Source: Bdellovibrionota bacterium (GTDB taxonomy: Bacteria; Bdellovibrionota; UBA1018; CAIPTA01; JAALKR01). Taken from it: DNA of 64,000 bases. The notes below the pieces were generated by a model. That model saw only the letters and a list, made by a program, of their open reading frames with translations. It did not search any database and had not been told where the DNA came from. The translations under genes were made by a program, and so were the position numbers. The stretch is from the NCBI GenBank assembly GCA_965207455.1, contig CBDBMJ010000003.1, forward strand, positions 96,001 through 160,000, read 5' to 3'. Shown here in pieces: positions 26,767 through 61,700 of this stretch. The number at the start of each line of letters is the position of its first letter. The stretch's first letter is position 1.

Positions 26767-26845
26767 CGGGATGTAGCGCAGCTTGGCTTAGCGCACTTGC
26801 ATGGGGTGCAAGGGGTCGCTGGTTCGAATCCAGTCATCCCGACCA
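26767..26845 (+). tRNA. tRNA-Pro(GGG)
   Basis: CGGGATG/CATCCCG acceptor, CTTGC-ATGGGGT-GCAAG anticodon arm, GGTTCGAATCC, CCA. Confidence 0.97.
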
Positions 26846-27251
26846 AAACAAATCACTACCCACTGGTTGAACCTAACTTGCCCTCTAATGCAAAAAAGCT
26901 AGAGGATTCGAACGCGGAGTAATGACCTGCGCTGGTTCCGAGTAAGCGAGGAACTAGTGTGGGGAAAAAAATCTTTTGATGATTTTTTAAATTACGCAGG
27001 GGAGCCTACGCAATAAAATCCCTGGATGGGATTTTATGTAGTGGGTTGAATCCAGTCATCCCGACCAAAACAAATCACTACCCACTGGTTGAACCTAACT
27101 TGCCCTCTAATGCAAAAAAGCTAGAGGATTCGAACGCGGAGTAATGACCTGCGCTGCGACCAAAACAAATCACTACCCACTGGTTGAACCTAACTTGCCC
27201 TCTAATGCAAAAAAGCTAGAGGATTCGAACGCGGAGTAATGACCTGCGCTG
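26826..27251 (+). repeat. tRNA-Pro-linked repeat array: 109 bp at 26826..26934 and 27048..27156, plus 95 bp at 27157..27251
   Basis: Exact repeats that begin with the tRNA 3' end (GAATCCAGTCATCCCGACCA). Confidence 0.93.
26881..27049 (+). ncRNA. Structured tRNA-linked element, copy A (candidate ncRNA or non-autonomous mobile element)
   Basis: About 80% identical by eye to 35896..36063, with covarying hairpins. Confidence 0.6.
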
Positions 27252-27479
27252 CGAATTGACTCATAAAAAACGGGGTTGTTGCATAAATAGCTCCAAATTG
27301 AGTCTGTGAGAGACCTCTAATGCCCTCTAGGGTTCTTGAGGCGCCTGACTACTCATTTAGGAATGCTCCCTCTCCTCCACTATTACCTAAAAGATATGTG
27401 GATGGGCTCCCTATACCCCAAAATCAATCCTTACAAAATATTATGCAACAACCCACTTTTCAATGTTAATATTTACAAT

Positions 27480-28406
27480 ATGTTGCCTAGACCAATCATA
27501 CCCTCACTGACTCTCACCTTTAGCCTCTTCTTTTTTAGCTTTTTCTTGGCTTCTCCCCTTTCTGCTAAAATTCAGAAAAAACCGTGCAGCCCCTTTGCTC
27601 AAAAAGGTTGCATGCCACCACCATCTCTAAGCGCCTGCCCATCAAAAAAGATTCTAAAAAACATTCAAGACAAGTCCATCCAGTACCAAGTGATAACAGC
27701 AATCCTTGATCATAAGTGTGAGGAGGAAGCAAAAGCAGTGTTCCCTCGCTTGAGCACAGATCCTTATGTGCATACTAGGCGCTTAGTGACCCGTGCATTG
27801 TACCTAGGAAAATTCTGGGATCTGGGAAAGGAGCTCTTTCCCAAACTGGCTCGCGATAAGGATTCAAGCGTACGAAATAATGTGGTAGCTGCTATGGTCA
27901 GGAGTCAAGACAAAGAGCTTGCAGGAACTATTTTTCATCAACTAATAAACGACACCTCCAGTGATATACGAAAGAATATTGCCGATGCCATTGGACAAAA
28001 TAAGTTTAAGGCACTTGCCATAGAGCTTCTACCAAAGCTTATAGAAGACAGTGACGATTCCGTACAACAGATAGCCATCGAGTCCATTGGCAGACTAAAG
28101 CTCTTGGGACTGGCCGAAAAATTTTTTCCAACACAGGCCCAGAGCACGAACCAAATCAATCGCTTTAAAGTGGCATACGCCATTGGATCAGGAGGATTTA
28201 CAAAACTAGCCGAAAGATTTTTTCCAACCTTCGCTAAAGATAAAAAAACAAATGTACGACGAGCCACTGCCTCCTCTATCGGCAAATTACAGAGCATAAA
28301 ACTAAGACCACTCTTAGAGGATTTAAAGAAAGATGAGATCCCAGTTGTGAGAAGAATAGCCACTAAAGCTGCAAAGAAACTAGATGCCACGGCTGAAGAA
28401 GAATGA
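27480..28406 (+). CDS. Secreted HEAT-repeat protein
   Basis: Signal peptide ending PLSA; repeated LxxD...VR..AA.AIG units; likely ATG 27480. Confidence 0.85.
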   Translation: MLPRPIIPSLTLTFSLFFFSFFLASPLSAKIQKKPCSPFAQKGCMPPPSLSACPSKKILKNIQDKSIQYQVITAILDHKCEEEAKAVFPRLSTDPYVHTRRLVTRALYLGKFWDLGKELFPKLARDKDSSVRNNVVAAMVRSQDKELAGTIFHQLINDTSSDIRKNIADAIGQNKFKALAIELLPKLIEDSDDSVQQIAIESIGRLKLLGLAEKFFPTQAQSTNQINRFKVAYAIGSGGFTKLAERFFPTFAKDKKTNVRRATASSIGKLQSIKLRPLLEDLKKDEIPVVRRIATKAAKKLDATAEEE

Positions 28407-28417
28407 GCCATGGACGC
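28297..28417 (+). repeat. 121-bp exact direct repeat, left copy (right copy 30615..30735)
   Basis: TAAAACTAAGACC...GAATGAGCCATGGACGC present twice, flanking the RM genes. Confidence 0.95.
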
Positions 28418-29510
28418 AAATGAAAGAAACAAAAAGGCAAGTGAATATACTTACGAGAAGATAAATAATTGCATCAAACACCCCATTTTATTATTAAAAG
28501 AAGATAATGAATACATGGAGTTGATCGACAGTTTTGTAAAAATTAAACAAAAAGGCTTTCGAGGTATTGTTTTAACCGCAATAGTCGGAAAATATCTCAA
28601 TAAAGACTTTAATCCTACTACTCAGTTTTATAACTGTAATCCAAGATCGATTTTTGAAAAAGGAATTCGCCATGCACTTATAAAACATAAAATTCCGCAT
28701 GGAAAATCTGACCCTTTGAATGTTGCAAAAAATATAGACATCTTAGATGAATCTTGGGCAAAAGGGAAGCGACCTGAGTCTGCAGCACTAGCTGTTGTAA
28801 CATTTCTTAGAAAATTACAGGACACAGAATATGAATCAGAAAAATATAAAAAATTAACAGATTTATTTTTCATGAAACTTGTGGAACTTAAAGACGATAT
28901 CGCAATTATTTCGACCAAGCTTCCAAACGTTGAACAATCAGAGCTTATCTTCGCTGAAAAATTAGCTAAGTTCATACATGAGGCACCCGAGGGAGGGGCT
29001 GTTCCACAGTTCGTTTTTGGCGCATTACTCATGGAACTTCGGGCAAGTCAGAAAACAAAAACAACGGTGCATGGCGCCAATGATAGTGTATTCAGCACAA
29101 ATACCGCATCAAGAAAGCCTGGAGACATATGGGAAGAGACAACACAAGGAGAAGTTATTTTTATATATGAGGTAACTGTAAAGCCCATTGATATAAATAG
29201 GCTTCAAGATTGCGCTGAAAACATTTCCAATTTAAAACTTAATTCAATTCCTGTAAAATTTTTATGCAGAATCCCTGAAGACATTAAATCCCTTCCACTT
29301 AAAAATGATTCCCGTGTTTTTATTTATCAAAATGTTGTATTCGAATTTATCTCTCTATCTAATTGGACTGTTGACATCTACACTTCTATTCCCACTGAAA
29401 GTCAAGAGTCTCTGAAGAGAAGAGTTGCTGAATTCATCGCATCTTACGATAGAGAAATAAACACTAAGAAAAAATGGAATATTTTTTTCAATTCTCATCG
29501 CTTATCTTAA
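28410..29510 (+). CDS. Probable type II restriction endonuclease (PD-(D/E)xK-like)
   Basis: AT-rich; convergent with a C5 MTase with stops overlapping in TTAA; KPGDIWE...YEVTVK candidate catalytic motif. Confidence 0.7.
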   Translation: MDANERNKKASEYTYEKINNCIKHPILLLKEDNEYMELIDSFVKIKQKGFRGIVLTAIVGKYLNKDFNPTTQFYNCNPRSIFEKGIRHALIKHKIPHGKSDPLNVAKNIDILDESWAKGKRPESAALAVVTFLRKLQDTEYESEKYKKLTDLFFMKLVELKDDIAIISTKLPNVEQSELIFAEKLAKFIHEAPEGGAVPQFVFGALLMELRASQKTKTTVHGANDSVFSTNTASRKPGDIWEETTQGEVIFIYEVTVKPIDINRLQDCAENISNLKLNSIPVKFLCRIPEDIKSLPLKNDSRVFIYQNVVFEFISLSNWTVDIYTSIPTESQESLKRRVAEFIASYDREINTKKKWNIFFNSHRLS

Positions 29511-30547
29511 GCGATATTTTTAATAATTTTTTTACTAATCTCTTGAGCAAGCTTTGGTGGAACAGCATTTCCAATTTGTTTATACTTACTACATTGAGAA
29601 CCTACAAATTTATATTCCTTAGGAAAAGATTGGAGTATGGCTGATTCAAAAACAGTTATTCTTCTCAGAAAACTTGGAACTTCTTTGTACGGCTTCCCAC
29701 CATCTTGCAAGTAGCGATGATATTCCTCTATCCAATTCTCTCTTGTTTCATTTTTTAAAAATTTCTCATCAATAAAAGGAGTTTTATTACCACCCATTGA
29801 TGCCGTCATAGTTATAGCAGGCCTGTCTAAGTCAAGTGGCCGTCCTTGACCATTAAAAAGCATACCAGCATAAGGAGATTTTCTCATAATGGGGTTTTTA
29901 GCAGGAACTATTTTTGCATTACATCTTTCAAAATTTTCTTTTCCCCCTAGAGAAGGAATACCTGTAAGAACATCTCTGACGGTTAATTCATAACTTAGAT
30001 TTTCTTTAGGAAAAAGAGAATCTACGTTAATTTTTAGTTTCTTTTGAACGCCTATGAAAATCGTCCTTTCTCTAGCTTGAGGAACTCCAAAATGTTTGCT
30101 ATTTAATATTTTTATTTCTGTGCAGTATCCTACTTTCTCAGCAGCACTCACCAAGCCTCTCCTTATATCTTCAAATCTGTCATTAATGGCTAAGTTCTTT
30201 ACATTTTCCATTACAAAAACTTTTGGCTTTTTCTCTTTAACGATCCGCATAAATTCCCATACAAGCTGACTCCTTGGGTCTTGTAAGCACATTTTGCCAG
30301 CTACTGAAAATCCCTGGCACGGTGGACCTCCAAAAATAATATCGCAATCTGGTATTTTAGAGGAAGAAATTTCTCTTATGTCACCTATAGTAATATGGTT
30401 TTCAAAATTCTTTCTATATGTGGCTACTGCTGATGGATCTATTTCATTTGCCCAAATAATACTAATACCAGCATTTTTGAATCCCAGATCCATTCCACCA
30501 GCACCAGAAAATAGAGAAACACCCCTAAGTTTTTTTCTTCTGCCCAT
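29507..30547 (-). CDS. DNA (cytosine-5) methyltransferase
   Basis: LFSGAGG, GGPPCQGFS, ENV, QARER, LQSFP, QIGNAVPP motifs. Confidence 0.97.
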   Translation of the reverse strand: MGRRKKLRGVSLFSGAGGMDLGFKNAGISIIWANEIDPSAVATYRKNFENHITIGDIREISSSKIPDCDIIFGGPPCQGFSVAGKMCLQDPRSQLVWEFMRIVKEKKPKVFVMENVKNLAINDRFEDIRRGLVSAAEKVGYCTEIKILNSKHFGVPQARERTIFIGVQKKLKINVDSLFPKENLSYELTVRDVLTGIPSLGGKENFERCNAKIVPAKNPIMRKSPYAGMLFNGQGRPLDLDRPAITMTASMGGNKTPFIDEKFLKNETRENWIEEYHRYLQDGGKPYKEVPSFLRRITVFESAILQSFPKEYKFVGSQCSKYKQIGNAVPPKLAQEISKKIIKNIA

Positions 30548-30614
30548 ATATCTTTTCCCTCAACTGTCACTATGATAATTAATAAATAGAGTTAGTACAA
30601 TAGAAATATAGAGC

Positions 30615-30735
30615 TAAAACTAAGACCACTCTTAGAGGATTTAAAGAAAGATGAGATCCCAGTTGTGAGAAGAATAGCCACTAAAGCTGCAAAGAAACTA
30701 GATGCCACGGCTGAAGAAGAATGAGCCATGGACGC
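30615..30735 (+). repeat. 121-bp exact direct repeat, right copy (duplicated 3' end of the HEAT gene)
   Basis: Identical to 28297..28417. Confidence 0.95.
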
Positions 30736-31021
30736 CTTGAGCTTAGGTGAAAATTCACTATCAAAATGGAAGGACAAGCACTCCACAGGCTCATAAATAC
30801 TGGAAACCACCCGTGATTTATCCTGCAACCCATATTAACGCAATGCATAAATTAAGATGACTTAGGGGAAAGCCTCCTCAATAAATCTCGAACTCATGGC
30901 CTAGATAGAGGCTAAAAATAGAAAAAACACTTTCCAATCCAAGGAATATACTGTAGGAAAATAGATTAAGTTATATGCTATAGTTTTACTGTAGCTGTTG
31001 TGAGAAAAACGTGGAGACCTT

Positions 31022-32218
31022 GTGAGAATGGATCTATTTGATAAATGCACATCTTATACGGACGCAAAGATTGCTCTAAAAAATAATTGTTATCCCTATT
31101 TTCGAGCCATTGAGAGCAGCACTGGCACTCAGGTTTTCTGTGACGGCAGGGAACGCATTATGATTGGCTCTAACAACTATTTAGGGCTAACCCAGCACCC
31201 CCGGGTAATGCAGGCATCGATATCTGCCATTGAAAAGTACGGAACGGGCTGTACAGGATCTCGCTTCTTAAACGGCAATATGGACATCCACGAAGAGTTG
31301 GAAGAGAGATTAGCCAAGTATCTGAATCGGGATGCAGCCCTTGTCTATGCCTCTGGTTTTCTTGCCAATTTGGGGACCATTTCCTGCCTAGCTGGCAGAA
31401 AAGACGTTATTTTCTCGGACCGGGAGAACCATGCTTCCATTGTGGAGGCCCAAAATATTGCCCCAGCACAGGTGGTTCGCTATCGCCACAACGATATGGA
31501 GGAGTTGGAGCGCTTATTGAAAGTGCATGAGGACGCCCCCGGCAAGCTCATTGTTTTCGATGGTGTCTTTTCCATGACTGGAGATATTGTTCCTTTACCT
31601 CGAATTGTGGAGTTAGCGGAAAAATACGGAGCGCGCCTGTATTGCGACTGCGCCCATGCCCTTGGCGTAATTGGAAAAGAGGGGCGAGGAACTGCCCACC
31701 ACTTTGGTCTAAACGACAAGGTGGATATCACCATGGGAACATTCTCCAAAAGTTTTGCTTCACTGGGTGGCTTTGTGGCTGCCTCAGACGATGTCATTCA
31801 TTTCATAAAACACAAGAGTAGGAGCTTTATGTTTTCTGCGGCCCTATCTCCAGCCAGTGTGGCTACTGCTCTGGAGTCTCTTAAGGTGGTTCAAGAGGAA
31901 CCTGAGCACTTGGCGTCCCTTTGGAAAAATACTCGCTACATGAAAAGCAATCTAGATAATATGGGATACAATACCTTGGATTCAGAAACGCCTGTGATTC
32001 CGTTGATGATTGGCGACGAGATAAAAACACACCAATTTGCCTCTGCCCTGTATGAGATGGGAGTGTTTGCCACCGTGGTGGTTTTTCCTGCCGTGCCTGC
32101 TGGTCAAGCCATGATTCGCACTAGCTATATGGCCAATCATACACAAAAGGAATTGGACTACGTTTTAGACATGTGCCAGAAACTCGGCAAGAAGTTCAAC
32201 ATACTCACCCCTCAGTAG
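31022..32218 (+). CDS. spt: Alpha-oxoamine synthase, probably serine palmitoyltransferase
   Basis: YPYFRAI, GSNNYLGL, GCTGSRFLNG, NHAS, GTFSKS (PLP lysine); coupled to a bCerS-like GNAT. Confidence 0.7.
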   Translation: MRMDLFDKCTSYTDAKIALKNNCYPYFRAIESSTGTQVFCDGRERIMIGSNNYLGLTQHPRVMQASISAIEKYGTGCTGSRFLNGNMDIHEELEERLAKYLNRDAALVYASGFLANLGTISCLAGRKDVIFSDRENHASIVEAQNIAPAQVVRYRHNDMEELERLLKVHEDAPGKLIVFDGVFSMTGDIVPLPRIVELAEKYGARLYCDCAHALGVIGKEGRGTAHHFGLNDKVDITMGTFSKSFASLGGFVAASDDVIHFIKHKSRSFMFSAALSPASVATALESLKVVQEEPEHLASLWKNTRYMKSNLDNMGYNTLDSETPVIPLMIGDEIKTHQFASALYEMGVFATVVVFPAVPAGQAMIRTSYMANHTQKELDYVLDMCQKLGKKFNILTPQ

Positions 32219-33366
32219 TGAATTTCCGCTTAGTCCAGTTTAGTCCAGCAAAAAACTCCAAAGAATTAAAGCGTTTTGTCTCCCTGCCTTGGTCGATCTA
32301 TAAAAATCAAGCCAACTGGATTCCTCCTTTGCGCCTAAAGGTTTTGGAAGATCTGGACACAAAGAAAAATCCCTTCTACTGCCATGCCAGCATTCAGTTA
32401 TGGAATGCCTACGACGGGAAGGAGCATGTGGGGCGTATTGCAGCCGTTAAAGATGAGCGATATAACGAAATTCACAAAAAGGAAATGGCGTTCTTTGGTT
32501 TTTTCGAATCTGTCGATCGGACTGAGGTGGCAGAAGCCCTATTTACGGCAGTGGAGTCGTGGGCAAAACAGCAAAACCTTAGTGCCGTTCAAGGACCCGT
32601 AAACCCCAGCTTAAACCACGCTGCGGGATTGCAGATCAATGCCTTTGAACGGGAGCCCTATATTATGACCACTCAAAATCCTCCCTACTATGAAAAGTTG
32701 CTCACCCACTGTTCCTACCAAAAAGCAAAGGACTTATTCTGCCATGAATTTGATTTTGAAAATGATGATATTCCTGCGATAACAAAAAAAATATGCGAAC
32801 GTATCCGTCGAAAAAATAAAGTTACTATTCGTTGTATTGACAAAAAAAATCTCAAGCAGGATATCAAGTACATCCAAGATATTTATAACGACGCTTGGGA
32901 AGACAACTGGGGATTCGTACCACTGGACGACCATGAATTTGATTTTATGGCAAAGGGTATGAAAGATATTCTATGGTCAAACTTTTGCTTACTAGCAATG
33001 GTCAATGGAGAACATATGGCTATGGTACTCTCCCTACCGGACATCCACCAAGTCCAAAAGAAAATACCCAATGGAAAGCTCCTTCCCTTTGGCATTTTCA
33101 AACTCCTATCGAACCTGTGGCGACCAAATTCTGGATGCATCAACCAAACCCGTCAGCTCATTATAGGCATAAAATCCAAGTACCGATCCACGGGGGTGTT
33201 GACCTTACTTGCGTATGAGATATACCAACGATCCATAAATAGTAATATTCGTAGATCAGAGGTGGGGTGGATTCTGGAAAATAACCATCTGGCCAACAAA
33301 ACGGTGGAGCAGTATACGAGAAAGCCGCCCTATAAAACGTACCGAATCTACGAGAAAACACTCTAA
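32218..33366 (+). CDS. GNAT N-acyltransferase, bacterial ceramide synthase-like
   Basis: FVSLPWSIY, WIPPL, KKNPF, VGRIAA, FGFFE, NWGFVP, WILENN; GTG start overlaps the spt stop. Confidence 0.72.
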   Translation: MNFRLVQFSPAKNSKELKRFVSLPWSIYKNQANWIPPLRLKVLEDLDTKKNPFYCHASIQLWNAYDGKEHVGRIAAVKDERYNEIHKKEMAFFGFFESVDRTEVAEALFTAVESWAKQQNLSAVQGPVNPSLNHAAGLQINAFEREPYIMTTQNPPYYEKLLTHCSYQKAKDLFCHEFDFENDDIPAITKKICERIRRKNKVTIRCIDKKNLKQDIKYIQDIYNDAWEDNWGFVPLDDHEFDFMAKGMKDILWSNFCLLAMVNGEHMAMVLSLPDIHQVQKKIPNGKLLPFGIFKLLSNLWRPNSGCINQTRQLIIGIKSKYRSTGVLTLLAYEIYQRSINSNIRRSEVGWILENNHLANKTVEQYTRKPPYKTYRIYEKTL

Positions 33367-33405
33367 GGCTCCAAAATTTACTTCCTGTATGCTAGCCTTA
33401 AACTT

Positions 33406-33912
33406 ATGAAAGTAATGGGGATAGACCCGGGTTCCGTCTGTATGGGGCTTGGTTGTATTGAAAGCCAAGATAGAAGCCTTATGTATGTGGGTCACCGCTT
33501 GGTCAACGTAAAAATGAAAAAGGAAAGTTCGTGGGTTGAGCGTATTAGAATTATTTACTCTTCCGTCCAGGAGCAAATCAAACTTTGGCAGCCGGATTGT
33601 GTGGCTATTGAAAATGTATTTATGTCTCAGAATGCTAGTAGCGCCTTAAAACTAGGACAAGCCCGGGGAAGTGCCATTGCTGCTGTGGCCATGGCCAACC
33701 TTCCTCTCCACGAATATTCTCCACGGAGCATTAAACAGAGTGTGGCCTCCTACGGCAATGCCAATAAGCAGCAGGTCGCTTCCATGGTGGCCCTTCTCCT
33801 TGGCAACTCCCTCAAGCAACACTCCCTACAGGCCGATGTCTCCGACGCCCTAGCCACTGCCATTTGCCATACTCAACACCAAAGGCTATATTGTCAACAG
33901 GACGCTAGATAA
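33406..33912 (+). CDS. ruvC: Holliday junction resolvase
   Basis: MGIDPG, AIENVF, LKLGQARG, DVSDALA. Confidence 0.96.
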   Translation: MKVMGIDPGSVCMGLGCIESQDRSLMYVGHRLVNVKMKKESSWVERIRIIYSSVQEQIKLWQPDCVAIENVFMSQNASSALKLGQARGSAIAAVAMANLPLHEYSPRSIKQSVASYGNANKQQVASMVALLLGNSLKQHSLQADVSDALATAICHTQHQRLYCQQDAR

Positions 33913-34565
33913 TGATTGCACGCTTAAAAGGAATTTTAGAGGAGAACACTACGGACCAGGTGATTGTGGATGTGCATTCCGTGGGTTACTCCTTGAAAGT
34001 ACCTGAACGCATACGCCAGCAGCTTCCCCCCATTGGTTCCCCCATCACTTTTGAAATCTATACCCACATTCGAGAGGATGTTATGGATTTGTACGGTTTT
34101 GTGTGCAGCTTGGAGCGACGCTTGTTTATGCTACTGATTAGTGCCAATGGTGTGGGTCCTAAGATGGCTTTGAAAATTCTTTCCCATCTGGAGAGCGAGC
34201 AATTACTCCATGCCATTCAAACAAAAAATATGGGTTTGTTCACAGCGATTCCTGGTATTGGTCCTAAAAAAGTGGAGAAGTTACTTTTGGAGTTAAGTGA
34301 TAAATGCAAAAAGTCTTTTTCCTCTCTAATGACTGATCAAAAAGTCGCCCCTCTTTCTCCCCTGGGTGTTAATGGACTAGAGGTCAGTTTGACGGAAGCC
34401 CTAACCACTCTTGGCTACAAGGACATGGAAGCTCGACAAACGATCCGTTATGTATTGGAAGCCCACGACCCCAAAGAGAAATTTGAGCAAACACTCAAGC
34501 GTTGCCTCCAGCAAATTCGACGTGCTGGAAGTAATCGTAGCAACGAGGTAAGTAAATGGATTTAG
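33912..34565 (+). CDS. ruvA: Holliday junction DNA-binding subunit
   Basis: MIARLKG, IREDVMDLYGF, GVGPK, IPGIGPK. Confidence 0.96.
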   Translation: MIARLKGILEENTTDQVIVDVHSVGYSLKVPERIRQQLPPIGSPITFEIYTHIREDVMDLYGFVCSLERRLFMLLISANGVGPKMALKILSHLESEQLLHAIQTKNMGLFTAIPGIGPKKVEKLLLELSDKCKKSFSSLMTDQKVAPLSPLGVNGLEVSLTEALTTLGYKDMEARQTIRYVLEAHDPKEKFEQTLKRCLQQIRRAGSNRSNEVSKWI

Positions 34566-35611
34566 AAATTCCCACAAATCCCAACCTTATAACAAAGAAA
34601 AATTCTCCAGAGGAGGGCAAGCAGGAGGTTAGGATTCGTCCTCAGTCCTTTGACCAGTTTATTGGACAAACGAAGGTGAAGGAAAATTTATTGTTATTTA
34701 TTCAGGCAGCGAAAAAGCGACAGGAGCCTTTGGATCATTGTCTACTGTCTGGTCCTCCGGGCTTGGGGAAAACTACTCTTGCCAATCTTATTGCTAAGGA
34801 AAAGGGAACTCAGCTCTTCACCTTAAGTGGGCCCGCACTGGATAAAAAGGGCGACATTGCTTCTATCCTCACCGACCTACTTCCTGGTGATATTTTATTT
34901 ATCGATGAAATCCACCGCATTCCCATCGCCATAGAGGAGGTTCTTTATTCCGCAATGGAGGACAGTCATTTAGATATTATTTTAGGGCAGGGACCTGGAG
35001 CGCGTTCTGTTCGTATTGATCTTTCTCCTTTTACTCTAGTGGGTGCCACCACACGTTCTGGTCTTCTATCTTCTCCCCTAAGGGATCGGTTTGGTATTCA
35101 CTTCAACTTGGAATTTTATAATCCCAAGGATCTCTCGAAAGTGGTGGATCAGGGAGCGCGCTTTTTAAATATTTCCATCACTCCGGATGGGGCCCGGGAG
35201 CTTTCCACCCGTTCTAGGGGAACTCCCCGAGTAGCTCTGAGGTTACTAAGAAGGGCCAGGGATTTTGCTCAAATTCAAAACAAAAGGGAAATCGACTTGG
35301 AGGTTGTTTGCGAGGCGCTCCAGCGCTTGGATGTGGACCATAAAGGACTCGACGCCATGGACAGAAAAATCCTGCTCACCATTATTGACCTATTTGATGG
35401 TGGACCGGTGGGACTGGACACCATTTCTGCAAGCATTGGTGAGGAGGCGCGAACGGTGGGGGAGGTATACGAGCCTTTTCTCCTCCAGCAGGGTCTGCTC
35501 CAGCGCACCCCAAGGGGAAGGGTGGCTGGCCCTCTTGCCTACCAGCATTTAAATAGGAAGCCCAAGGCCACTAATGGCACAAGATTCAGCACTGGAGGGG
35601 AAAAGGTTTAG
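34556..35611 (+). CDS. ruvB: Holliday junction helicase
   Basis: GPPGLGKTT, FIDEIHR, LRDRFG, EPFL...RTPRGR. Confidence 0.98.
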   Translation: MDLEIPTNPNLITKKNSPEEGKQEVRIRPQSFDQFIGQTKVKENLLLFIQAAKKRQEPLDHCLLSGPPGLGKTTLANLIAKEKGTQLFTLSGPALDKKGDIASILTDLLPGDILFIDEIHRIPIAIEEVLYSAMEDSHLDIILGQGPGARSVRIDLSPFTLVGATTRSGLLSSPLRDRFGIHFNLEFYNPKDLSKVVDQGARFLNISITPDGARELSTRSRGTPRVALRLLRRARDFAQIQNKREIDLEVVCEALQRLDVDHKGLDAMDRKILLTIIDLFDGGPVGLDTISASIGEEARTVGEVYEPFLLQQGLLQRTPRGRVAGPLAYQHLNRKPKATNGTRFSTGGEKV

Positions 35612-35651
35612 AAAAAAAAAGGTCACTTAATGAAGAAGCGGCATCAAAACC

Positions 35652-35679
35652 TTGACACCAGTCCAAACTACGAGATACT
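35652..35679 (+). promoter_or_regulatory. Sigma-70 promoter of the tRNA-Lys/Glu operon
   Basis: TTGACA-N16-GATACT ending 10 nt before tRNA-Lys. Confidence 0.55.
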
Positions 35680-35689
35680 CAATTTTTAG

Positions 35690-35766
35690 GGGCCAATAGC
35701 TCAGTTGGTTAGAGCATCTCCCTTTTAAGGAGAGGGTCGAAGGTTCGAGTCCTTCTTGGCTCACCA
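35690..35766 (+). tRNA. tRNA-Lys(TTT)
   Basis: GGGCCAA/TTGGCTC acceptor, TCTCC-CTTTTAA-GGAGA anticodon arm, CCA. Confidence 0.97.
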
Positions 35767-35776
35767 TAAAAATTAT

Positions 35777-35854
35777 GTTCCCATCGTCTAGCCTGGTCTA
35801 GGACATCTCCCTTTCACGGAGAAAACAGGGGTTCGAATCCCCTTGGGAATGCCA
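35777..35854 (+). tRNA. tRNA-Glu(TTC)
   Basis: GTTCCCA/TGGGAAT acceptor, TCTCC-CTTTCAC-GGAGA anticodon arm, CCA. Confidence 0.97.
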
Positions 35855-36183
35855 ACTACCCCAAACAAAAACATCCATCAAACCGAAAGCACCAACCCCC
35901 AATGTAATAAAAGCAAAGGGGATTCGAACACGAAGCAATGACCCGCGCTGGCTTTGAGCTGGCGAGGAGCTAGTGAGGGGAAAAAAATCACGAGGATTTT
36001 TTAAATTGCGTAGGAGAGCCTACGCAGCGAAATCCCTGGAGGGGATTTTGTGTAGTAGGTCGGCCCCTTGGGAATGCCAACTACCCCAAACAAAAACATC
36101 CATCAAACCGAAAGCACCAACCCCCAATGTAATAAAAGCAAAGGGGATTCGAACACGAAGCAATGACCCGCGCTGGCTTTGAG
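35839..36183 (+). repeat. tRNA-Glu-linked direct repeat: 120 bp at 35839..35958 and 36064..36183
   Basis: Exact repeat that begins with the tRNA 3' end (CCCCTTGGGAATGCCA); period 225 bp. Confidence 0.93.
35896..36063 (+). ncRNA. Structured tRNA-linked element, copy B
   Basis: Homologous to 26881..27049, with covarying stems. Confidence 0.6.
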
Positions 36184-36208
36184 TTAGCGCAGCGCGCACA
36201 CCATCAAG

Positions 36209-37264
36209 TTAGGAGAGTCCTAATTCATACCAGCTTCCACGACCTTTTCCACACAGCACCAGATGGTTTTTTCTAAGCAATGCCCTGAAATGTTCTTTCA
36301 GGGTGTTACGACTTACGCCGGTAATTTTAATCATATCAGCCATTGTGACTCGTCCATGTTGACGAGCATGATCCAGGATTTGCAGGGATAACTCTGGCAA
36401 GCTGGATGCGATTATTTTCTCCCGTTTAACCTTTTTGCCAAGGTTGCGGCTTTGCTGTAGCAAAATCTGTAGAAAATAAATTATCCAGGGTTGCCAATCG
36501 GGATTTTCAGTACGGATCGTGCCTTGTGTTTGTCGTAAGGCCAAGTAATAGGTATCTTTATTTTTTTCGATCACGCTTTCCAAAGAGCTATACGGCACAT
36601 AAGCATAGCCGGCGCGGAGTAAAAGCAATGTGGTTAAAACACGGCTTAATCGACCGTTCCCGTCTACAAACGGGTGAATCTCTAAAAACACCACAATAAA
36701 CACAGCAATTGTCAAAAGTGGGTGCAATGATTTAGTTTCCAGTGTTTCATTTGCCCAAGCGACAATCTCGCTCATTAGTGCCGGTGTTTCAAAAGGTGTG
36801 GCCGTTTCAAATACGACTCCAACCTGCTTACCCGTTTCATCAAAGGCAGCGACGTTATTGGATGATGTTTTATATTCTCCACAATGATGATTATCTTTTT
36901 CCACGTACTTTAAGAGATCACGATGGAGTTGTTTGATGTGATTTTCGCTCAGGTGAATATCTTCCCATGACTGAAATACCAATTCCATCACTTCGGCGTA
37001 ACCGGCCACTTCTTGTTCATTGCGTGTTCCAAAATATTTGATCTGCAAATTGGACAGCAATTTTTCCACTTCACGATCAGAAAGCTTACTGCCTTCAATG
37101 CGTGTGGAAGATCCGATACTTTCAATGGTAGCAACACGTCGCAGAGTGTCTAAGCGATCTGGCGCAAGCGTTCCTAAAGCACGCCAAGCTCCTTTAAATT
37201 CATCAATTTCAGCAATGAGCCCAAGGATCTTCTGCGTAATATTAAGTGTCTTTGTTTCTATCAT
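36209..37264 (-). CDS. Fic-domain protein with C-terminal wHTH
   Basis: HPFVDGNGRLSR catalytic motif, STRIEG inhibitory motif, HTH...GKGRGSWY; likely ATG 37264. Confidence 0.93.
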   Translation of the reverse strand: MIETKTLNITQKILGLIAEIDEFKGAWRALGTLAPDRLDTLRRVATIESIGSSTRIEGSKLSDREVEKLLSNLQIKYFGTRNEQEVAGYAEVMELVFQSWEDIHLSENHIKQLHRDLLKYVEKDNHHCGEYKTSSNNVAAFDETGKQVGVVFETATPFETPALMSEIVAWANETLETKSLHPLLTIAVFIVVFLEIHPFVDGNGRLSRVLTTLLLLRAGYAYVPYSSLESVIEKNKDTYYLALRQTQGTIRTENPDWQPWIIYFLQILLQQSRNLGKKVKREKIIASSLPELSLQILDHARQHGRVTMADMIKITGVSRNTLKEHFRALLRKNHLVLCGKGRGSWYELGLS

Positions 37265-37316: not shown

Positions 37317-37443
37317 TACGAAAAAGCCCTAAATACGGGTCTCTAAAGTTATAATGCTAGGGCTGGAGCGGAAGCAAAAAGAAAAATATCAGATTAATTC
37401 AATAAAATCAAAGCGATACTGCTAAATAAAAATCAGACTATTT

Positions 37444-49910: not shown

Positions 49911-50137
49911 AACTTAGACTGTATGGGAGAGACGAGCTTTTGTCAAAATTTCACTCGATCCCTTCACTGGTCTCACAAACCAAATAACCGTGCCTTTCAG
50001 TCCATTAATGGCATATTTATGTTTTCCTTGAGATCGCACCCCGCATTAACCAAGCCATAACTCACTGTTCTCAAAGCCATTTTGGTGACGTTTTTTGTGA
50101 GTCAATTCGGCGCACAATAAAAAAATCGAAATAACTA

Positions 50138-51309: not shown

Positions 51310-52608
51310 CTATAGATTATCAACGGAGATAGGCGTTTTGCTACAAGAAGCATTTCTCCCACCAATCGAACATATATCCGTAGTTGTGGCACCCAGTTCC
51401 CCATAGGCGTTCCCTCCCCAGCATTTTGCAGTTCCACCACTAATAAGTGCGCAAATGTGATCATCTTCAGTTTTGATTTCACTGGCATCGCTTAAACCTG
51501 AAACCGTAACTGGTGTATCGCTATCTGTTGTACTATTATTGCCCAGTTCTCCCCACTCATTCCTTCCCCAGCACTTCACAGTACCCGCTTCATCTATTTC
51601 CGTGGTGGCTGTATCATCTTCTAAAACTGCACAACTAAATCGATCTCCTAAAGCAAGTTGACTTGCATTATTTAAACCAGAAACCGTAACTGGTGTTGGG
51701 CTATCTGTTGTACTATTATCACCGAGTTGCCCGTTATCATTCTTTCCCCAGCATTTTACTGTACTGCCACTAATAATTGCGCAAGTGTGATCTACTCCTA
51801 TGGAGACTTGGGTTGCATTGGATAAGCCAGTAACCGTAACTGGCGCTGGACTACAGGCCTCATCATTACATGTATCTGTAGTCGTGGCACCTAACTGTCC
51901 AGATTCATTATACCCCCAGCATTTTACCGTGGCACCACTAACAACTGCACAAGCGTGCAAAGGTCCTGCGGACATTTGAGTGATACCGCTTAAGCTAGAC
52001 ACTGCAACGGGTGTTAGACTATTGCTTGCGCTACCTCTACCCAATTGTCCAGTGCCATTACCCCCCCAGCATTTTGCAGTATTATCCTTTAAAAGAGCGC
52101 AACTGTGGAACTCTCCTGCAAAAACTTTCTTGGCATTACTTAGGCCAGAAACCACAACTGGTGTTGTGCTTTTATCTCCCTCACTACCGCCACTGTTATT
52201 ACCCAGTTGACCATCCCTATTATTTCCCCAACACTTTACAGTACCGCCAATGATAAGTGCACAAGCGTGACCGTGTCCCAAAGAAATTTGACTTACACTG
52301 CTTACGCCGGAAACTGTAACCGCTGCTATGCTATCGGTTGTGCTGTCATTGCCCAGCTGACCAAACTCATTCTTTCCCCAGCATTTTACCGTGCCACCGC
52401 TAATAATTGAGCAGCTGTATTGAGTTCCTGTGGCAATTTGTGTGACAACAGTGCTTGGGTTTGGGTTTGGGTTTGGGTCTGGGTCTGGGCCTGGACTCGG
52501 GATCGGATCCGGTTCATCTGCTAGGTCCGTTATAGTTACTAACGGATCAGCACATGCACTCAACAAAAGAAAAAGAATTGCTGGTAAGATAAAAAGTTTT
52601 TTAAACAT
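51310..52608 (-). CDS. RCC1-repeat beta-propeller lipoprotein
   Basis: Lipobox LSAC, PD/PN linker, seven HxCA...VKCWGxNxxGQLG-type repeats; RBS AGGAGG, ATG 52608. Confidence 0.92.
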   Translation of the reverse strand: MFKKLFILPAILFLLLSACADPLVTITDLADEPDPIPSPGPDPDPNPNPNPSTVVTQIATGTQYSCSIISGGTVKCWGKNEFGQLGNDSTTDSIAAVTVSGVSSVSQISLGHGHACALIIGGTVKCWGNNRDGQLGNNSGGSEGDKSTTPVVVSGLSNAKKVFAGEFHSCALLKDNTAKCWGGNGTGQLGRGSASNSLTPVAVSSLSGITQMSAGPLHACAVVSGATVKCWGYNESGQLGATTTDTCNDEACSPAPVTVTGLSNATQVSIGVDHTCAIISGSTVKCWGKNDNGQLGDNSTTDSPTPVTVSGLNNASQLALGDRFSCAVLEDDTATTEIDEAGTVKCWGRNEWGELGNNSTTDSDTPVTVSGLSDASEIKTEDDHICALISGGTAKCWGGNAYGELGATTTDICSIGGRNASCSKTPISVDNL

Positions 52609-52641
52609 CGTCCTCCTATTACATACTATCAATTACTATGA

Positions 52642-57046: not shown

Positions 57047-57288
57047 GTTTTTTTTCCCGTATATTTTATGGAGTTGCCATAGTCTACAATGCCACCATGG
57101 GCTTGTCCATATTCTATACATCTTTCCAGTAGCAATAAATTAGACAGCTCAACGCTGTTTATCCTGTTTGAACTCCCTGATTTCCAAGGGTTTTCCCTGT
57201 GTCAAATACCTCTTGACTATACGCCAAATACTGTATTAAAATAGTAGTATATAGGTTTCTCAACCATAACCTTGCGGGGGGTTTATTT

Positions 57289-58733
57289 ATGAAAATTAGA
57301 AAAAAACACTCTTTTATACCCTTATTTTACTGGCGACAAGTACTAGGCACTGCCCTAGTCTTTACCCTCGCACTAACAATGTTGCCAAGTGTAGCTAGTG
57401 GCACTTGCGGTACTCAAGGCACACCTGCTTGTCCAAGCCTCAAAAACCCAGCTAGCCCAGCAAGTGGAACAGATTCAATCGGTGTAGCAGATGAAACAAA
57501 TTCAGTAGCAGCAAAAGCAAAAGCATTACAAAAAAGACAGCAAGAAGTAGCAGCAGAATTAGAACTTTGTCCGGAAACAGCACCTGCTGGTTTTGGTGCT
57601 TTCATTGATTTTATTTGGCCAGACCATTGTAATGTGTTTCATAGAGCAGCAGAAGCAGTAAATGCTCAGCTAACACCCGCATGTGCGGGTCCAACATGTA
57701 AAGCAAGTGCTGTTGAAGCAACTGAGGGGCTAAGAACTTCTGCAGAAATCTATAAATGGTCACAACGCTCTGGAATCATAGCAGCAGGAGCAGTGATAGC
57801 TTCAGACGGTTTTCAAGGAGTGGCAATGACAAGGATTCTTTAGAGTCATCTGCTAAGATGCATAAAATAGCTGGCAGTGCTTCTATTGCAGCAGGAGCAG
57901 TGGATGCTGCCTTATCTCTAAAAGCATGGAATTCCGAACGGCAAAAAGTGAATAGCATTAACTGTATATCTCCCACCACAGGTCTGCCAGTACCATCTTG
58001 TACGGCTGGAAAGGCCGCAGCGATCGAAAAAATCAACGAAGCAATTAGCGAGGCTGCTTTCATGAGTACAGCCAAAATAACTGCTGGGTCGATTGCTATA
58101 AAAATAGGAAGCGATTCTGCTAAGAGTGCTAATGACCTAGGTGATATTCCCGAACCCAAATCCGAACCTGGTGGACCCGGAATTATACCTAAACCCGAAC
58201 CTAGACCCGACAATAATGCCAAGTATGACGAAGCTTCATCAGGAAGCGCTTCTGCAATGAAAAAGGAGGATTTTCCCGAGAATGCTAGTGGTTCTTCCCG
58301 GGCAGCAATTGGACAGTCAACAAGTCAACTGGCAGCAAGTGAGAGGACAGTGGGTGAAGAAGATATTTCAATTTCTACTGTTGCTGCCGATTCCAACAAC
58401 TCAGGCTCTCCGGGTTATGGACAAGCATCCATAGGTTCTGGCGGCTTTACCAGTGGCGTGGATGGTGGCTCACAAGGAAACACTTCAGTGGGTTCTGCCA
58501 ATGGTGTAATGGATATAGGTAGTTCCGATGGTGGTTTTGGAAAAATTATAAATTCTCTTGCCGGCGATAATGGAGAATCAGGCAAAAAAAATCATATTTC
58601 TATCGCTCAATCAAGAGCTGCCTATGGGCAATCTCTAAAGTTAGGATCAGGAAGAAACTCTTCCTCTATTTTTGAACGTGTCCACAGCGCTATTAAAAGA
58701 AATATGAAGGAAGGATCTGTTTATGGAGATTAG
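57289..58733 (+). pseudogene. Exported Gly/Ser-rich family member 1, frameshifted near 57806-57818 (track ORFs 57289..57843 and 57756..58733)
   Basis: Colinear paralog of 58723..60330; 12 versus 10 nt between TCAGA and AGTGGC gives a +2 shift. Confidence 0.8.
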
Positions 58734-60330
58734 AAAAAAACACTCTTTTATACCCTTATTTTACTGGCGACAAGTACTAGGCACTGCCCTAGTCTTTACC
58801 CTCGCACTAACAATGTTGCCAAACGTGGCTAAAGGAACATCAACATTTTCAGATAATGGCACTCTATTGGTAAAGGAACGCCGGTGTGAGAAAAAGCGTA
58901 CTCGGCAGGGATTTAAAAACGTTTGCTTTGATTACTTCAGGGAGGCAACACCAGAAGAAATCGCAGCTTTTAGAGGAGAAAATACCAGCGCAGTAGCTGA
59001 TAAGGGAATAGGTGTAGCAGACGGATCAGGTGGACCAAGTTTAGATACAACAGGGCCAGTAAGGCCAGCATCGGGGGAATCGCAAGCAAAAGCAAATGCA
59101 CAAATAGATCAAAGAAACGCAGATTTAACGGCAAAAAACGAACAACAAGCGCTAGCAAAAGAACAAGCACTTTGTCCAGACACAGCGCCTACTGGTTTTG
59201 GTGCTTTCATTGATTTTATTTGGCCAGACCATTGTAATGTGTTTCATAGAGCAGCAGAAGCAGTAAATGCTCAGCTAACACCCGCATGTGCGGGTCCAAC
59301 ATGTAAAGCAAGTGCTGTTGAAGCAACTGAGGGGCTGCGCACTTCTGCAGAAATCTATAAATGGTCAAATCGTGCTGGAATTGTGGCAGCAGGGGCAGTG
59401 GTAGCTTCAGAGGCTTTCAATAGTGGCAATGACAAGGATTCTTTAGAGGCATCTGCTAAGATGTATAGGGTAGCTGGTGGTGCTGCTGTTGCAGCAGGAT
59501 CTGTGGATATTGCTTTATCTCTAAAAGCATGGATGTCTGAGCAGGAAAAAGTGAACAGCATTAACTGTATATCCCCCAGCACAGGCCAACCGGACGCAGC
59601 TTGTACCGCTGGAAAAGATGCAGCGAACGTAAAAATCGACGAAGCAATTATGGAAGCTTCTCTCATGGGTAGCGCTAAAATAGTTGGTGGCTTGGGCGCT
59701 ATAAAATTAGGAAGTGATTCTGCTAAGAGTGCTAACAACCTGAGTTCAGTAAAGTCCTCCGCTCCTCCTACAAAAGTTGACCCTGGCAAGCATTACGGTA
59801 GAGATAATGAATTTGACAAAACCTCAACAGGAGGAGCTTCTGTAGCTCAAGAGGAAAAATTTCCCGACTTTAGCAGTTCATCACAGGCAGCAAGTAAAAG
59901 AGATGCTGGAGGTATTCCTACTGCCGCTTCCGACAAGTCAGACTCTCCCGGAAATTATGGACAGTCGGCATCCACGGGTTCCAGTGGATCCCTCGGTGGG
60001 TCGAATATAGATGACTCGCAAGGGAACGCTTCCAGTGGTTTTATAAAAATATCTAAGGGAGGAACATCTTGGTCTGGCGGAGGTCGTGGTCTTGCCAATG
60101 GCGTAATGGATATGAGTGGATCTGATGGTGGTTTTGGAAACATTATGAGCTCTCTTATGGGTGGCAGTCAAAAACCAGAAAACAATAACTATGTTTCTAT
60201 TGCTCAAGCCAAAGCCGACTATAAGCGCTCCCTACAGTCAGGCAAGGGTGGAAGTTCTCTATCTATTTTTGATCGCATCCACAGTGCTATCAAAAGAAAT
60301 ATGAAGGAGGGAAGCCTTTCTCCGAGGTAA
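58723..60330 (+). CDS. Exported Gly/Ser-rich family member 2
   Basis: Signal peptide, Cys pairs, Ala/Gly hydrophobic helices, low-complexity linker, SIFDRIH tail. Confidence 0.85.
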   Translation: MEIRKKHSFIPLFYWRQVLGTALVFTLALTMLPNVAKGTSTFSDNGTLLVKERRCEKKRTRQGFKNVCFDYFREATPEEIAAFRGENTSAVADKGIGVADGSGGPSLDTTGPVRPASGESQAKANAQIDQRNADLTAKNEQQALAKEQALCPDTAPTGFGAFIDFIWPDHCNVFHRAAEAVNAQLTPACAGPTCKASAVEATEGLRTSAEIYKWSNRAGIVAAGAVVASEAFNSGNDKDSLEASAKMYRVAGGAAVAAGSVDIALSLKAWMSEQEKVNSINCISPSTGQPDAACTAGKDAANVKIDEAIMEASLMGSAKIVGGLGAIKLGSDSAKSANNLSSVKSSAPPTKVDPGKHYGRDNEFDKTSTGGASVAQEEKFPDFSSSSQAASKRDAGGIPTAASDKSDSPGNYGQSASTGSSGSLGGSNIDDSQGNASSGFIKISKGGTSWSGGGRGLANGVMDMSGSDGGFGNIMSSLMGGSQKPENNNYVSIAQAKADYKRSLQSGKGGSSLSIFDRIHSAIKRNMKEGSLSPR

Positions 60331-60333
60331 ATT

Positions 60334-61680
60334 ATGTTTCAAAATCCATTGTCAATAATTAGCATATCTTTGTTATTCGCCTTAGGCGGAAGCAATCTCC
60401 TATATGCTAAAAGTAGCCAGGGGTGTTTTAAAGAGAACAGTGATTGCCAGAAACATTTCAAAAAAATTAAAGCATGTTTGAACGTTCCTAAAACAAGTGC
60501 ATCGTTAGTAAGAGCAGGATGCAAAAAAATAAGTACAGGCTTTCAGGATGCAACTAAATGGGATAATATTTTAGAGGCGCTCAAAACAAGTAGAAACACA
60601 AATCTTGCAGACATAACTGCCTCTTCTTCGGGGCAAAAGGATCAAAACGCTGCATGTGTGGAGCTTAACAAAAACTCATCTCAGGAAATGAAATCAGCTA
60701 TTGCTAATTTAAAGGCGGCTTTTGAGAAAATAAATAAAGGCAAAAAACTTATAGATAAAGGGATAGCAAAACTCAGTGCACAGCAAGCTGCAAATCCAAA
60801 AGAAATCAAGAAGTACCAGGAATATTCCACTGCTGCGGAAAATATAAAGAGCCAAATCAAGAAAGAAATCAGAGAGTACTCCAGTCTCTCTAAAAATTTC
60901 AACAGCAATCAAGGAAAATGTGAACAAAATGAAAGCTCCACAAGCTCGCTAAAAAAACTTTATGAAAAAGAAAAGGAATTTAAAAAAGGCAAAGGAGGTC
61001 TTATATATGCTATGGGCAAGCAGCTACACTCTTTGGCCAAAGCTCGCAATAAAAGCATTAGCGGAAGCTCAGGGGCTAATCTTCTTTCAGATGCCGACAT
61101 AAAACTACCTCCACTCCCCACTCTTGAATGGGATGAAGAAACAGAGGAAGCCCAAGCATCTTCAGATTTCACTACTTCTCTTGCAGGGAGGGCTGGAAAT
61201 AAAAATATGGACAAGATTTTAAGTTCTAGCGAAGAATCGAATCCCAATACAAGTGGTGCTTCCACAGGTTTTCGTCACTCTAGTACACCCTCTGGAGGAA
61301 CTGCCATACCTCCATCTACAGCAAGCTCCACACCATCTGCAACAGGATCCACACAATCCTCATCCGTAATTGATAGCAAAATTGAAGTTGGCGCTATTTT
61401 GGAAAATGAAGAGTCCAATCTTTTCGCTTCGATCGCTTGGTCTGGCGGTGGTGGTGGGCTTGGTAATGGAATAGCTGGCAGCATAGATCCCAGTTTTAAA
61501 AATTTCTTTAACGATCAGCCCAAGAAAAATAATCGTACATATTCCAGCTATACTAGTGACTCTTCTCCAGATAGGCATTTAGCCGAACGAAAGGAAACGA
61601 AAGATGAAACAAGAGATTCTTTATTTGACCGCATACACCTCCAAATTTCATTGCTCTATGAGCAAGGCGAGGTTCGGTAA
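60334..61680 (+). CDS. Exported Gly/Ser-rich family member 3 (coiled coil)
   Basis: Signal peptide, Cys-containing helical domain, Ser-rich linker, SLFDRIH tail. Confidence 0.85.
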   Translation: MFQNPLSIISISLLFALGGSNLLYAKSSQGCFKENSDCQKHFKKIKACLNVPKTSASLVRAGCKKISTGFQDATKWDNILEALKTSRNTNLADITASSSGQKDQNAACVELNKNSSQEMKSAIANLKAAFEKINKGKKLIDKGIAKLSAQQAANPKEIKKYQEYSTAAENIKSQIKKEIREYSSLSKNFNSNQGKCEQNESSTSSLKKLYEKEKEFKKGKGGLIYAMGKQLHSLAKARNKSISGSSGANLLSDADIKLPPLPTLEWDEETEEAQASSDFTTSLAGRAGNKNMDKILSSSEESNPNTSGASTGFRHSSTPSGGTAIPPSTASSTPSATGSTQSSSVIDSKIEVGAILENEESNLFASIAWSGGGGGLGNGIAGSIDPSFKNFFNDQPKKNNRTYSSYTSDSSPDRHLAERKETKDETRDSLFDRIHLQISLLYEQGEVR

Positions 61681-61700
61681 TTTTTAGAAAGGAAAAGAAA

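Follow-up and report, generated by a model that had tools for sequence, protein, structure and literature searches.

The two gene-less repeat units, each of about 210 nt, that stand behind the tRNA-Pro and tRNA-Glu genes in a 64,000-nt stretch of a Bdellovibrionota bacterium (GCA_965207455.1, contig CBDBMJ010000003.1, positions 96,001 to 160,000; this whole stretch is hereafter the window, numbered from its first letter) belong, on sequence grounds, to a new family of tRNA-linked repeats (TLRs) that is widespread and multi-phylum. Its units always lie on the tRNA strand and share one layout, in which the tRNA is followed by a leader, an antisense copy of the T-arm, a conserved core and a direct copy of the tRNA 3' end. 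This layout, a fixed right junction, the matching of both copies to the host tRNA, a covarying fold, a patchy spread and empty sites in relatives are directly observed. We give about an even chance to a non-autonomous element that acts as a folded single strand, probably of DNA, and is joined into the tRNA T-loop by a trans-acting enzyme; what we infer is the strand chemistry, the enzyme involved and the sequence of events.

Anatomy of the two units in the window

The source assembly is called "this genome" below (label G000); other genomes carry G numbers and loci L numbers. The two window loci are built as follows.

26767..26845, plus strand: tRNA-Pro(GGG), the intact host gene (ARAGORN, Rfam)
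26846..26903, plus strand: leader of Pro unit 1, with kin leaders behind a displaced Asn end and a Met tRNA of this genome
26904..26913, plus strand: antisense copy of the host T-arm, tRNA positions 53-62, 10 nt exact (from sequence)
26914..27045, plus strand: conserved core of the Pro unit (fold, covariance model); its right end resembles a half-site of a MOB_V origin of transfer (oriT)
26915-26923/26991-26999, plus strand: helix P1b in the Pro core, enclosing two hairpins (covariation)
27005-27009/27041-27045, plus strand: stem P4 in the Pro core, enclosing hairpin P5 (27013-27037)
27046..27067, plus strand: direct copy of the tRNA-Pro 3' end, from position 55 to CCA, with one C-to-T change
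27068..27251, plus strand: two truncated tandem units at Pro (27068-27156 and 27163-27251), each with leader, antisense arm and core start
35777..35854, plus strand: tRNA-Glu(TTC), the intact host gene (ARAGORN, Rfam), preceded by tRNA-Lys at 35690-35766
35855..35916, plus strand: leader of Glu unit 1
35917..35929, plus strand: antisense copy of the host T-arm, positions 53-65, 13 nt exact
35930..36059, plus strand: conserved core of the Glu unit, folding as in the Pro copy
36060..36079, plus strand: direct copy of the tRNA-Glu 3' end with a damaged T-loop, exact over the last 16 nt only
36080..36189, plus strand: truncated second Glu unit, followed at about 36190-36220 by the right end of an insertion sequence (IS)-like element

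Global alignment of 26881-27049 with 35896-36063 gives 136 identical columns of 171, with 24 transitions and 6 transversions, in line with the initial annotation of this DNA, which had placed an approximately 80% identical, mostly transition-diverged element at these coordinates behind tRNA-Pro and tRNA-Glu; ARAGORN calls the hosts Pro(ggg) and Glu(ttc). The three stems quoted there are present with their compensatory changes, and the repeat periods of 222 at the Pro locus (26820/27042) and 225 at the Glu locus (35839/36064) are right, as is the duplicated tRNA 3' end with CCA at both. The shared layout proposed there needs amending: the Pro locus has two truncated units rather than one, the Glu copy has the partial exactness listed above, and the antisense T-arm copies (26904-26913, 35917-35929) had been overlooked. 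Neither unit holds an open reading frame of at least 90 amino acids, which bears out the earlier statement that no integrase or transposase lies inside. The Pro and Glu units fold with z-scores of -5.2 and -3.3, each more stably than all 200 shuffles. An Rfam search of the window loci returned the tRNAs alone and no described Rfam family, and terminator prediction on both window copies called none in the interval from tRNA to core.

Truncation in both loci coincides with the end of an unrelated IS-like repeat present elsewhere in this genome. An IS-like element with inverted ends starting GGGTCTC (window 36190-36220 and 37337-37350) stands behind several tRNAs and cuts the second Glu unit; a 1.2-kb IS-like copy behind Ser-gct (G000:C3:369291-370503) contains a 272-amino-acid frame that looks transposase-like by eye; and a second repeat end (window 27253-27275 and 50089-50116), with 9 copies in this genome, closes the third Pro unit at 27253. 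In Logan contigs from a single run, which is probably the source sample and hence not independent, positions 26905-27077 lie within one unitig; no unit-skipping joints occur in the contigs of that run, a result uninformative on mobility.

Both arms follow the host tRNA and the right junction is fixed

Ninety-four units of the family have a readable upstream T-loop. The direct copy in these agrees with its own tRNA at 14.4 of 17 positions, against 9.2 after exchange of tRNAs between units (at most 9.8 over 200 exchanges); for the antisense arm the agreement is 10.9 of 12, against 8.7 (at most 9.0); the sequences are phylogenetically related, and these and all other counts given here overstate independence. 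Complementarity of the arm is at least 0.93 at tRNA positions 54-62 and at background from position 66 on (n=83, filtered for terminal GAA). A full inverted copy running through the acceptor stem is found in 6 of 159 units, where 0.6 would be expected, and such units form one long fold-back of tRNA end and trailer. A primer-binding-site model based on reverse transcription was rejected on the loss of complementarity at positions 66-76, the usual lack of CCA in copies whose gene lacks it and the absence of reverse transcriptase from this genome.

C56 is the first base of the direct copy, except in a sub-type, to which this genome belongs, whose copies start at T55. Of 141 units scored (out of 166, the other 25 having no readable copy), 138 follow the rule that an extra base before C56 is accompanied by an additional C behind the antisense arm, and on the tree this register requires 6 changes, at least 3 of them forced. 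Among 82 units, 46 have an exact duplication of at least 17 nt; in 26 of them it spans 18-22 nt, which corresponds to the tRNA's own end. At positions 57-62 the antisense arms of these 82 units carry 11 mismatches to the intact tRNA and the downstream copies 28, and in all 27 discordant units the arm is the closer of the two, a comparison biased towards the tRNA by selection, as arms were located by their match to it. Where the gene lacks an encoded CCA the direct copy usually lacks it as well, and a DNA template therefore looks likely; CCA is present in the downstream copy only at three loci (L143, L169, L186).

Strong hairpins make up 51 of 64 leaders, and many of them look like terminators that would be predicted to stop transcription ahead of the core. 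As a separate observation, several relatives (L046:1600-1670, L044:1600-1680, L064, L127 and L376) have a palindromic leader whose loop contains a REP-like insert with a GTAC palindrome.

The core has a covarying fold rich in G·A pairs

In its conserved fold the core forms a three-way junction in which tandem G·A pairs are abundant. Over the 12 columns of helix P1b in 91 cores, 469 of 1092 cells are Watson-Crick pairs, 408 are G·A and 38 are G·T, and the summed mutual information is 6.7, compared with 2.6-3.5 in three other registers. This helix emerges from anchor-based alignment and is missed by energy folding; compensatory changes in it are seen in the window Pro copy and in the Arg copy. 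The covariation score of a 67-row alignment is 0.383, as against 0.128 in shuffles and at most 0.139 in slid controls. Stem P4 was fixed by the search pattern, and its pairing is informed only by the 15 pattern-independent matches found by the model alone, in which the outer pair is C-G in 9 and G-C in 6. A RNAalifold consensus of 11 copies from this genome, which draws a hairpin over the P1b/P4 region, showed no compensatory change and was set aside in favor of the P1b/P4 fold.

The cores are also strongly asymmetric, with 536 YGAR words on the tRNA strand, 31 on the opposite strand and 254 in shuffles. Because tandem sheared G·A pairs and GNA loops are described as stable DNA motifs (PMC11014236, PMC3201870), single-stranded DNA (ssDNA) is favored, and the G·A-rich fold appears more typical of ssDNA than of RNA.

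Copies in this genome, empty sites and spread across phyla

The BLASTN search suggested in the initial annotation finds 22 matches in this genome, all behind tRNA 3' ends, and a covariance model finds 17; together they stand behind 11 tRNA ends in a genome with 33 tRNA genes (ARAGORN). Units stand behind Pro-ggg, Glu, Ser-gct, Ser-tga, Ser-gga, Met, Arg-cct and Trp (partial), the Pro-tgg locus retains 3' fragments of a unit only, and at the Gln and Asn loci integrase islands with junctions of their own later displaced the array from the intact tRNA gene. The 11 aligned cores are 80-99% identical. Leaders are common to different tRNAs (Ser-gct, Trp, Ser-tga and Gln; Pro, Asn and Met), so that whole units have evidently changed host gene. 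The antisense arm, 10 nt long at both Pro and Asn, follows the diagnostic T-loop variants of the Met, Arg and Asn tRNAs, and the Gln arm is a better fit to Ser tRNAs (12) than to Gln (10).

Two of these loci have further peculiarities. At Pro-tgg (G000:C3:35900-40580) the unit is split by repeated small secreted-type genes with a common N-terminus, leaving right-end fragments, and the third Ser-gga unit (G000:C1:1458245-1458265, L016) carries a copy of the Ser tRNA 3' end inside its core, possibly a template-switch scar.

In the closest relative, a genome of the same family that is 88% complete, the covariance model has no match, and the Glu, Ser-tga, Trp, Gln, Met and Asn sites are empty (flanks are short for Glu, 191 nt, and Gln, 75 nt). 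Three Lys-Glu loci of the order are empty too, so the vacant sites that the initial annotation had proposed to look for exist at the orthologous positions examined. The covariance model, built from 67 sequences, matches 30 of 111 class genomes including this one, and a gapped right-end motif matches 11 of 400 other phylum genomes. BLAST of a window copy against 40 relatives gave one weak 27-nt match; the family was recovered only through the gapped motif and the covariance model. Exact patterns of the type found in this genome have no match in genome contigs, and BLAST against plasmids and phages yields short chance matches only.

Scans of sequence collections give at least 110 genome loci and 118 metagenome loci, and the genome records among the matches listed include Bdellovibrionales, Desulfuromonadales, Omnitrophota, Planctomycetia, Nitrospinota and others. 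The end of a tRNA or tmRNA gene is found no more than 400 nt upstream at 72 of the 110 listed genome loci, 76 of the 118 metagenome loci and 24 of 29 further loci; the remaining loci are interrupted by a contig end, are displaced fragments or match by chance. Almost every tRNA type serves as host, as does tmRNA. Units with the same frame and C56 junction and other right-hand modules occur at L026, L155, L369 and L376, sometimes with two types in tandem. At L108 (760-1035), a tRNA-Arg split in its anticodon loop by an apparent group I intron has a family unit behind it.

Relation to known repeats and elements

The TLRs of E. coli lie behind a tRNA or rRNA gene as 1-5 units with an 18-19 bp copy of its end, and their origin and function have been without explanation since 1978 (PMC8144298). 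The present family likewise stands behind tRNAs on the same strand, repeats the tRNA 3' end and forms 1-5 tandem non-coding units; the initial annotation had seen no named family to which the element could be assigned, yet in design it is that of the E. coli TLRs, though unrelated in sequence. Gene-less tandem units on the same strand are common to both (tyrT-tyrV RtT/RttR, the lys cluster and rrA/B/F in E. coli), as are GNA-capped, GA-rich hairpins, found in the tyr and lys units. The tyr unit carries an antisense T-arm matching at 10 of 12 positions, with GA for TC, a variant seen in 6 of 184 family units, whereas the lys unit has only a 5-nt match. In contrast to the E. coli duplications, which start at A58/A59 and span 18-19 nt, those of the family start at C56/T55 and span 21-22 nt; the family also uses nearly every tRNA type plus tmRNA across phyla and has an oriT-like right end. 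The family model finds no sequence homology at the E. coli tyr and lys loci (best E 0.29), and there is no RtT match in Rfam. We found no account in the literature of this family or of antisense T-arms in TLRs, although older TLR papers and the supplements of motif surveys, which lay outside our coverage, may contain them.

REP/REPIN-RAYT and IS200/IS605 systems also comprise short non-coding hairpin elements moved in trans, and IS605 recognizes its target by base pairing. The present family differs from them in its branched fold, strict T-loop junction and 18-22 nt duplication, and most of the element-rich genomes tested have no Y1 transposase. With tyrosine-integrase islands it shares a duplicated tRNA 3' end flanking an insert, but the units are 200 bp long, have no integrase, carry an antisense arm and place one core at many tRNAs.

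Two further identities were considered and rejected. A group I intron, hammerhead or other known ribozyme does not fit the lack of an Rfam match, the core length of 110-140 nt, the fold or the intact upstream tRNA. The ColE1 primosome assembly site (ssiA) gave no model match at E 5, and its local scores did not exceed those of shuffles; although the 110-bp ssiA stretch drew 10 of the 67 best local matches on ColE1, the likeness is not significant.

The right end resembles MOB_V transfer origins

The right-end pattern has four clostridial matches away from tRNAs, three of them near-identical; at L147 the motif immediately precedes a Mob_Pre relaxase gene and is on the strand opposite to it. Among plasmids, 87 carry similar sequences and 81 of these are typed as mobilizable; in the two inspected the sequence stands upstream of mobV. 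The clostridial mobV-upstream sequences contain the exact 20-nt right-end pattern of the family, and those of Bacillus and Weissella are close to it. With the oriT of L392, of the mapped TAGTGCG/TTA type, the family has in common a GAG, a 5-bp arm, an internal loop, a hairpin and a second 5-bp arm reaching the nick. Nick positions of MOB_V relaxases have been mapped in pMV158 and IMESag (PMC3105389, PMC5090054), and the family core ends at the predicted MOB_V nick position, where the tRNA copy starts. The architecture of a MOB_V-type hairpin and about 8 nt up to a G/T- or G/C-type nick site is matched, the nick of the CCTAC/GTAGG sub-type being placed by homology. Unlike a MOB_V oriT, the family has the tRNA end rather than IR2 after the nick position, and the left part of its core has no counterpart there.

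Search for an enzyme

Genes around 257 loci, 177 of them longer than 1.5 kb, were surveyed through the 22 largest protein clusters, and Pfam was scanned against 57 mobile-region and 36 window proteins of this genome. The recurring neighbors are housekeeping genes and, at 6 of the 257 loci, small GIY-YIG genes. No integrase lies inside or adjacent to units or recurs beside these loci, and a nuclease or recombinase co-occurring with full copies, which the initial annotation had proposed to look for, did not appear, since no candidate enzyme tracks the element. Nor is there support for the accessory cargo described there (HEAT and restriction-modification genes behind one copy, fic and an FGE lipoprotein behind the other): the duplicated boundaries do not enclose these genes, which stand on the far side of IS-like ends, and among flanking families none recurs beyond the neighbors just named.

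Proposed mechanism and alternatives

The element reading anticipated in the initial annotation, of a non-autonomous tRNA-targeting element, fits because cores 80-99% identical stand behind 11 tRNA ends, relatives have empty orthologous sites and the right junction is constant; the co-transcribed RNA that it offered instead stays as a rival. As no enzyme was found, movement is deduced from distribution. We envisage that the tRNA-sense strand folds into the three-way junction and that the antisense arm pairs with a T-arm, which may belong to the target or, in an excised circle, to the unit itself. Joining of the final base of stem P4 to C56/T55 would follow, probably through a HUH-type enzyme supplied in trans, and host repair would recopy the tRNA end, leaving the gene whole and generating the 18-22 nt duplication. 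The arm may be rewritten for its new host by fold-back at the tRNA trailer hairpin or by later correction, and tandem arrays could arise from repeat rounds or unequal exchange.

A stronger version, which we regard as tentative and distinctly less probable, is a self-reprogramming ssDNA parasite whose right end is a MOB_V-type nick site and whose antisense arm is a 9-13 nt guide to any T-arm, rewritten at each insertion. If so, this would be a natural form of base-pair-programmed DNA insertion at tRNA genes that does not break them, and TLRs in general could be a class of guide-directed, HUH-driven elements. With its hundreds of varied copies, the family offers the TLR question a fold backed by covariation, a junction defined to the base and a candidate MOB_V-type chemistry.

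Several observations weigh against the reading as a mobile ssDNA element. Tandem G·A pairs are found in RNA too. Computationally, ssDNA and RNA motifs are hard to separate (PMC5737381), the leaders in this genome are mostly not palindromic, and the relatedness of the sequences inflates every count. Viral contigs contain no match to the exact patterns of this genome's type or to the family pattern. No unit seen has internal genes; reverse transcriptase is absent from G000, G261 and G402, Y1 transposase from G000 and 4 of 5 other genomes tested, and small GIY-YIG proteins from the element-rich G000, G402 and G404, which have a UvrC-sized protein only. Replic_Relax does not co-occur with the family (6 of 29 positive versus 23 of 81 negative genomes), and no Mob_Pre gene is present in the 111 class genomes, in three element-rich outside genomes or beside any unit. 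The oriT likeness itself was found after the right-end pattern had been chosen; the full family model is not significant against MOB_V plasmid oriTs (best E 1.9), two of three MOB_V upstream regions with enough flank (L389, L391) do not match the oriT expression, and the other right-end types (L026, L155, L369, L376) share the frame and have no oriT-like motif.

The rival that we take most seriously, at a likelihood similar to that of the guide version, is a co-transcribed trailer RNA like RtT/RttR and RrA/B/F, freed at the duplicated end by tRNA-type 3' processing, whose arm pairs with the T-arm of the pre-tRNA and affects its maturation, or which binds a protein. E. coli TLRs are transcribed and processed as RNA (PMC8144298), and the constant tRNA strand, the YGAR asymmetry, the lack of a called terminator in the window copies and the arm's closer tracking of the intact tRNA (with the selection bias noted above) all suit it. 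An RNA would, however, not be expected to prefer G·A over G·U by about 11:1 in P1b, nor to follow strong, often terminator-like leader hairpins; presence is patchy, the choice of tRNA is apparently arbitrary, and the fixed junction and oriT-like end are left without explanation. An enzyme-free spread is unlikely in our view: here template switching or ectopic recombination through microhomologies of CCA end and T-loop would move units, with quasi-palindrome correction keeping the arm matched. The leaders common to different tRNAs, the Ser-like Gln arm and the failure of any candidate enzyme to co-occur agree with such a route, which does not account for the cross-phylum motifs and covarying fold, nor for the first gain by a lineage.

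Still less probable are two nuclease- or recombinase-based schemes. If the units were minimal tyrosine-integrase islands (attL, body, attR), mobilized by a resident or visiting integrase with crossover in the T-loop, the duplication from T-loop to tRNA end would resemble att cores, and this genome does encode 9 tyrosine recombinases; a single core at 11 tRNAs with differing 3' ends speaks against it, as do the true islands at Gln and Asn, which displaced existing arrays and have their own junctions, and the lack of an integrase recurring beside the 257 loci. We find it harder yet to believe that T-loop cleavage by a small GIY-YIG nuclease leaves a 2-nt 3' overhang and that the core is added to both strands as a cap. 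The two junctions do lie 2 nt apart in both registers, and small GIY-YIG genes stand on both sides of L117, but such genes occur at few loci, are missing from three element-rich genomes and accompany other tRNA repeats; the E. coli lys TLRs have a 2-nt linker without a tRNA match there, and the spacing may reflect junction geometry.

Neighboring genes and other observations

Small GIY-YIG genes lie right beside tRNA genes at L117, L120, L199, L202, L203, L206 and L230, in Omnitrophota, Planctomycetia and a metagenome contig; the repeats next to them are of other types, some duplicating tRNA halves. The 5.6-kb contig G000:C2 (L380) carries tyrosine integrase, HTH_17 and Replic_Relax genes, and similar islands with integrase and HTH_17 genes occupy tRNA-Gln, Asn and Leu; one of these islands also holds two TIR (ThsB-like) genes and a methylase-Mrr fusion.

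Elsewhere in the window, an exact 121-bp direct repeat (28297-28417 and 30615-30735) flanks a C5 methylase gene and a 366-amino-acid gene; the latter has no Pfam match and may encode a nuclease, and read depth falls from about 37 to 25 at the right repeat. Positions 51310-52632 hold the gene for an RCC1-repeat protein, and 57279-63185 a cluster of paralogous genes without Pfam match that contains long direct repeats.

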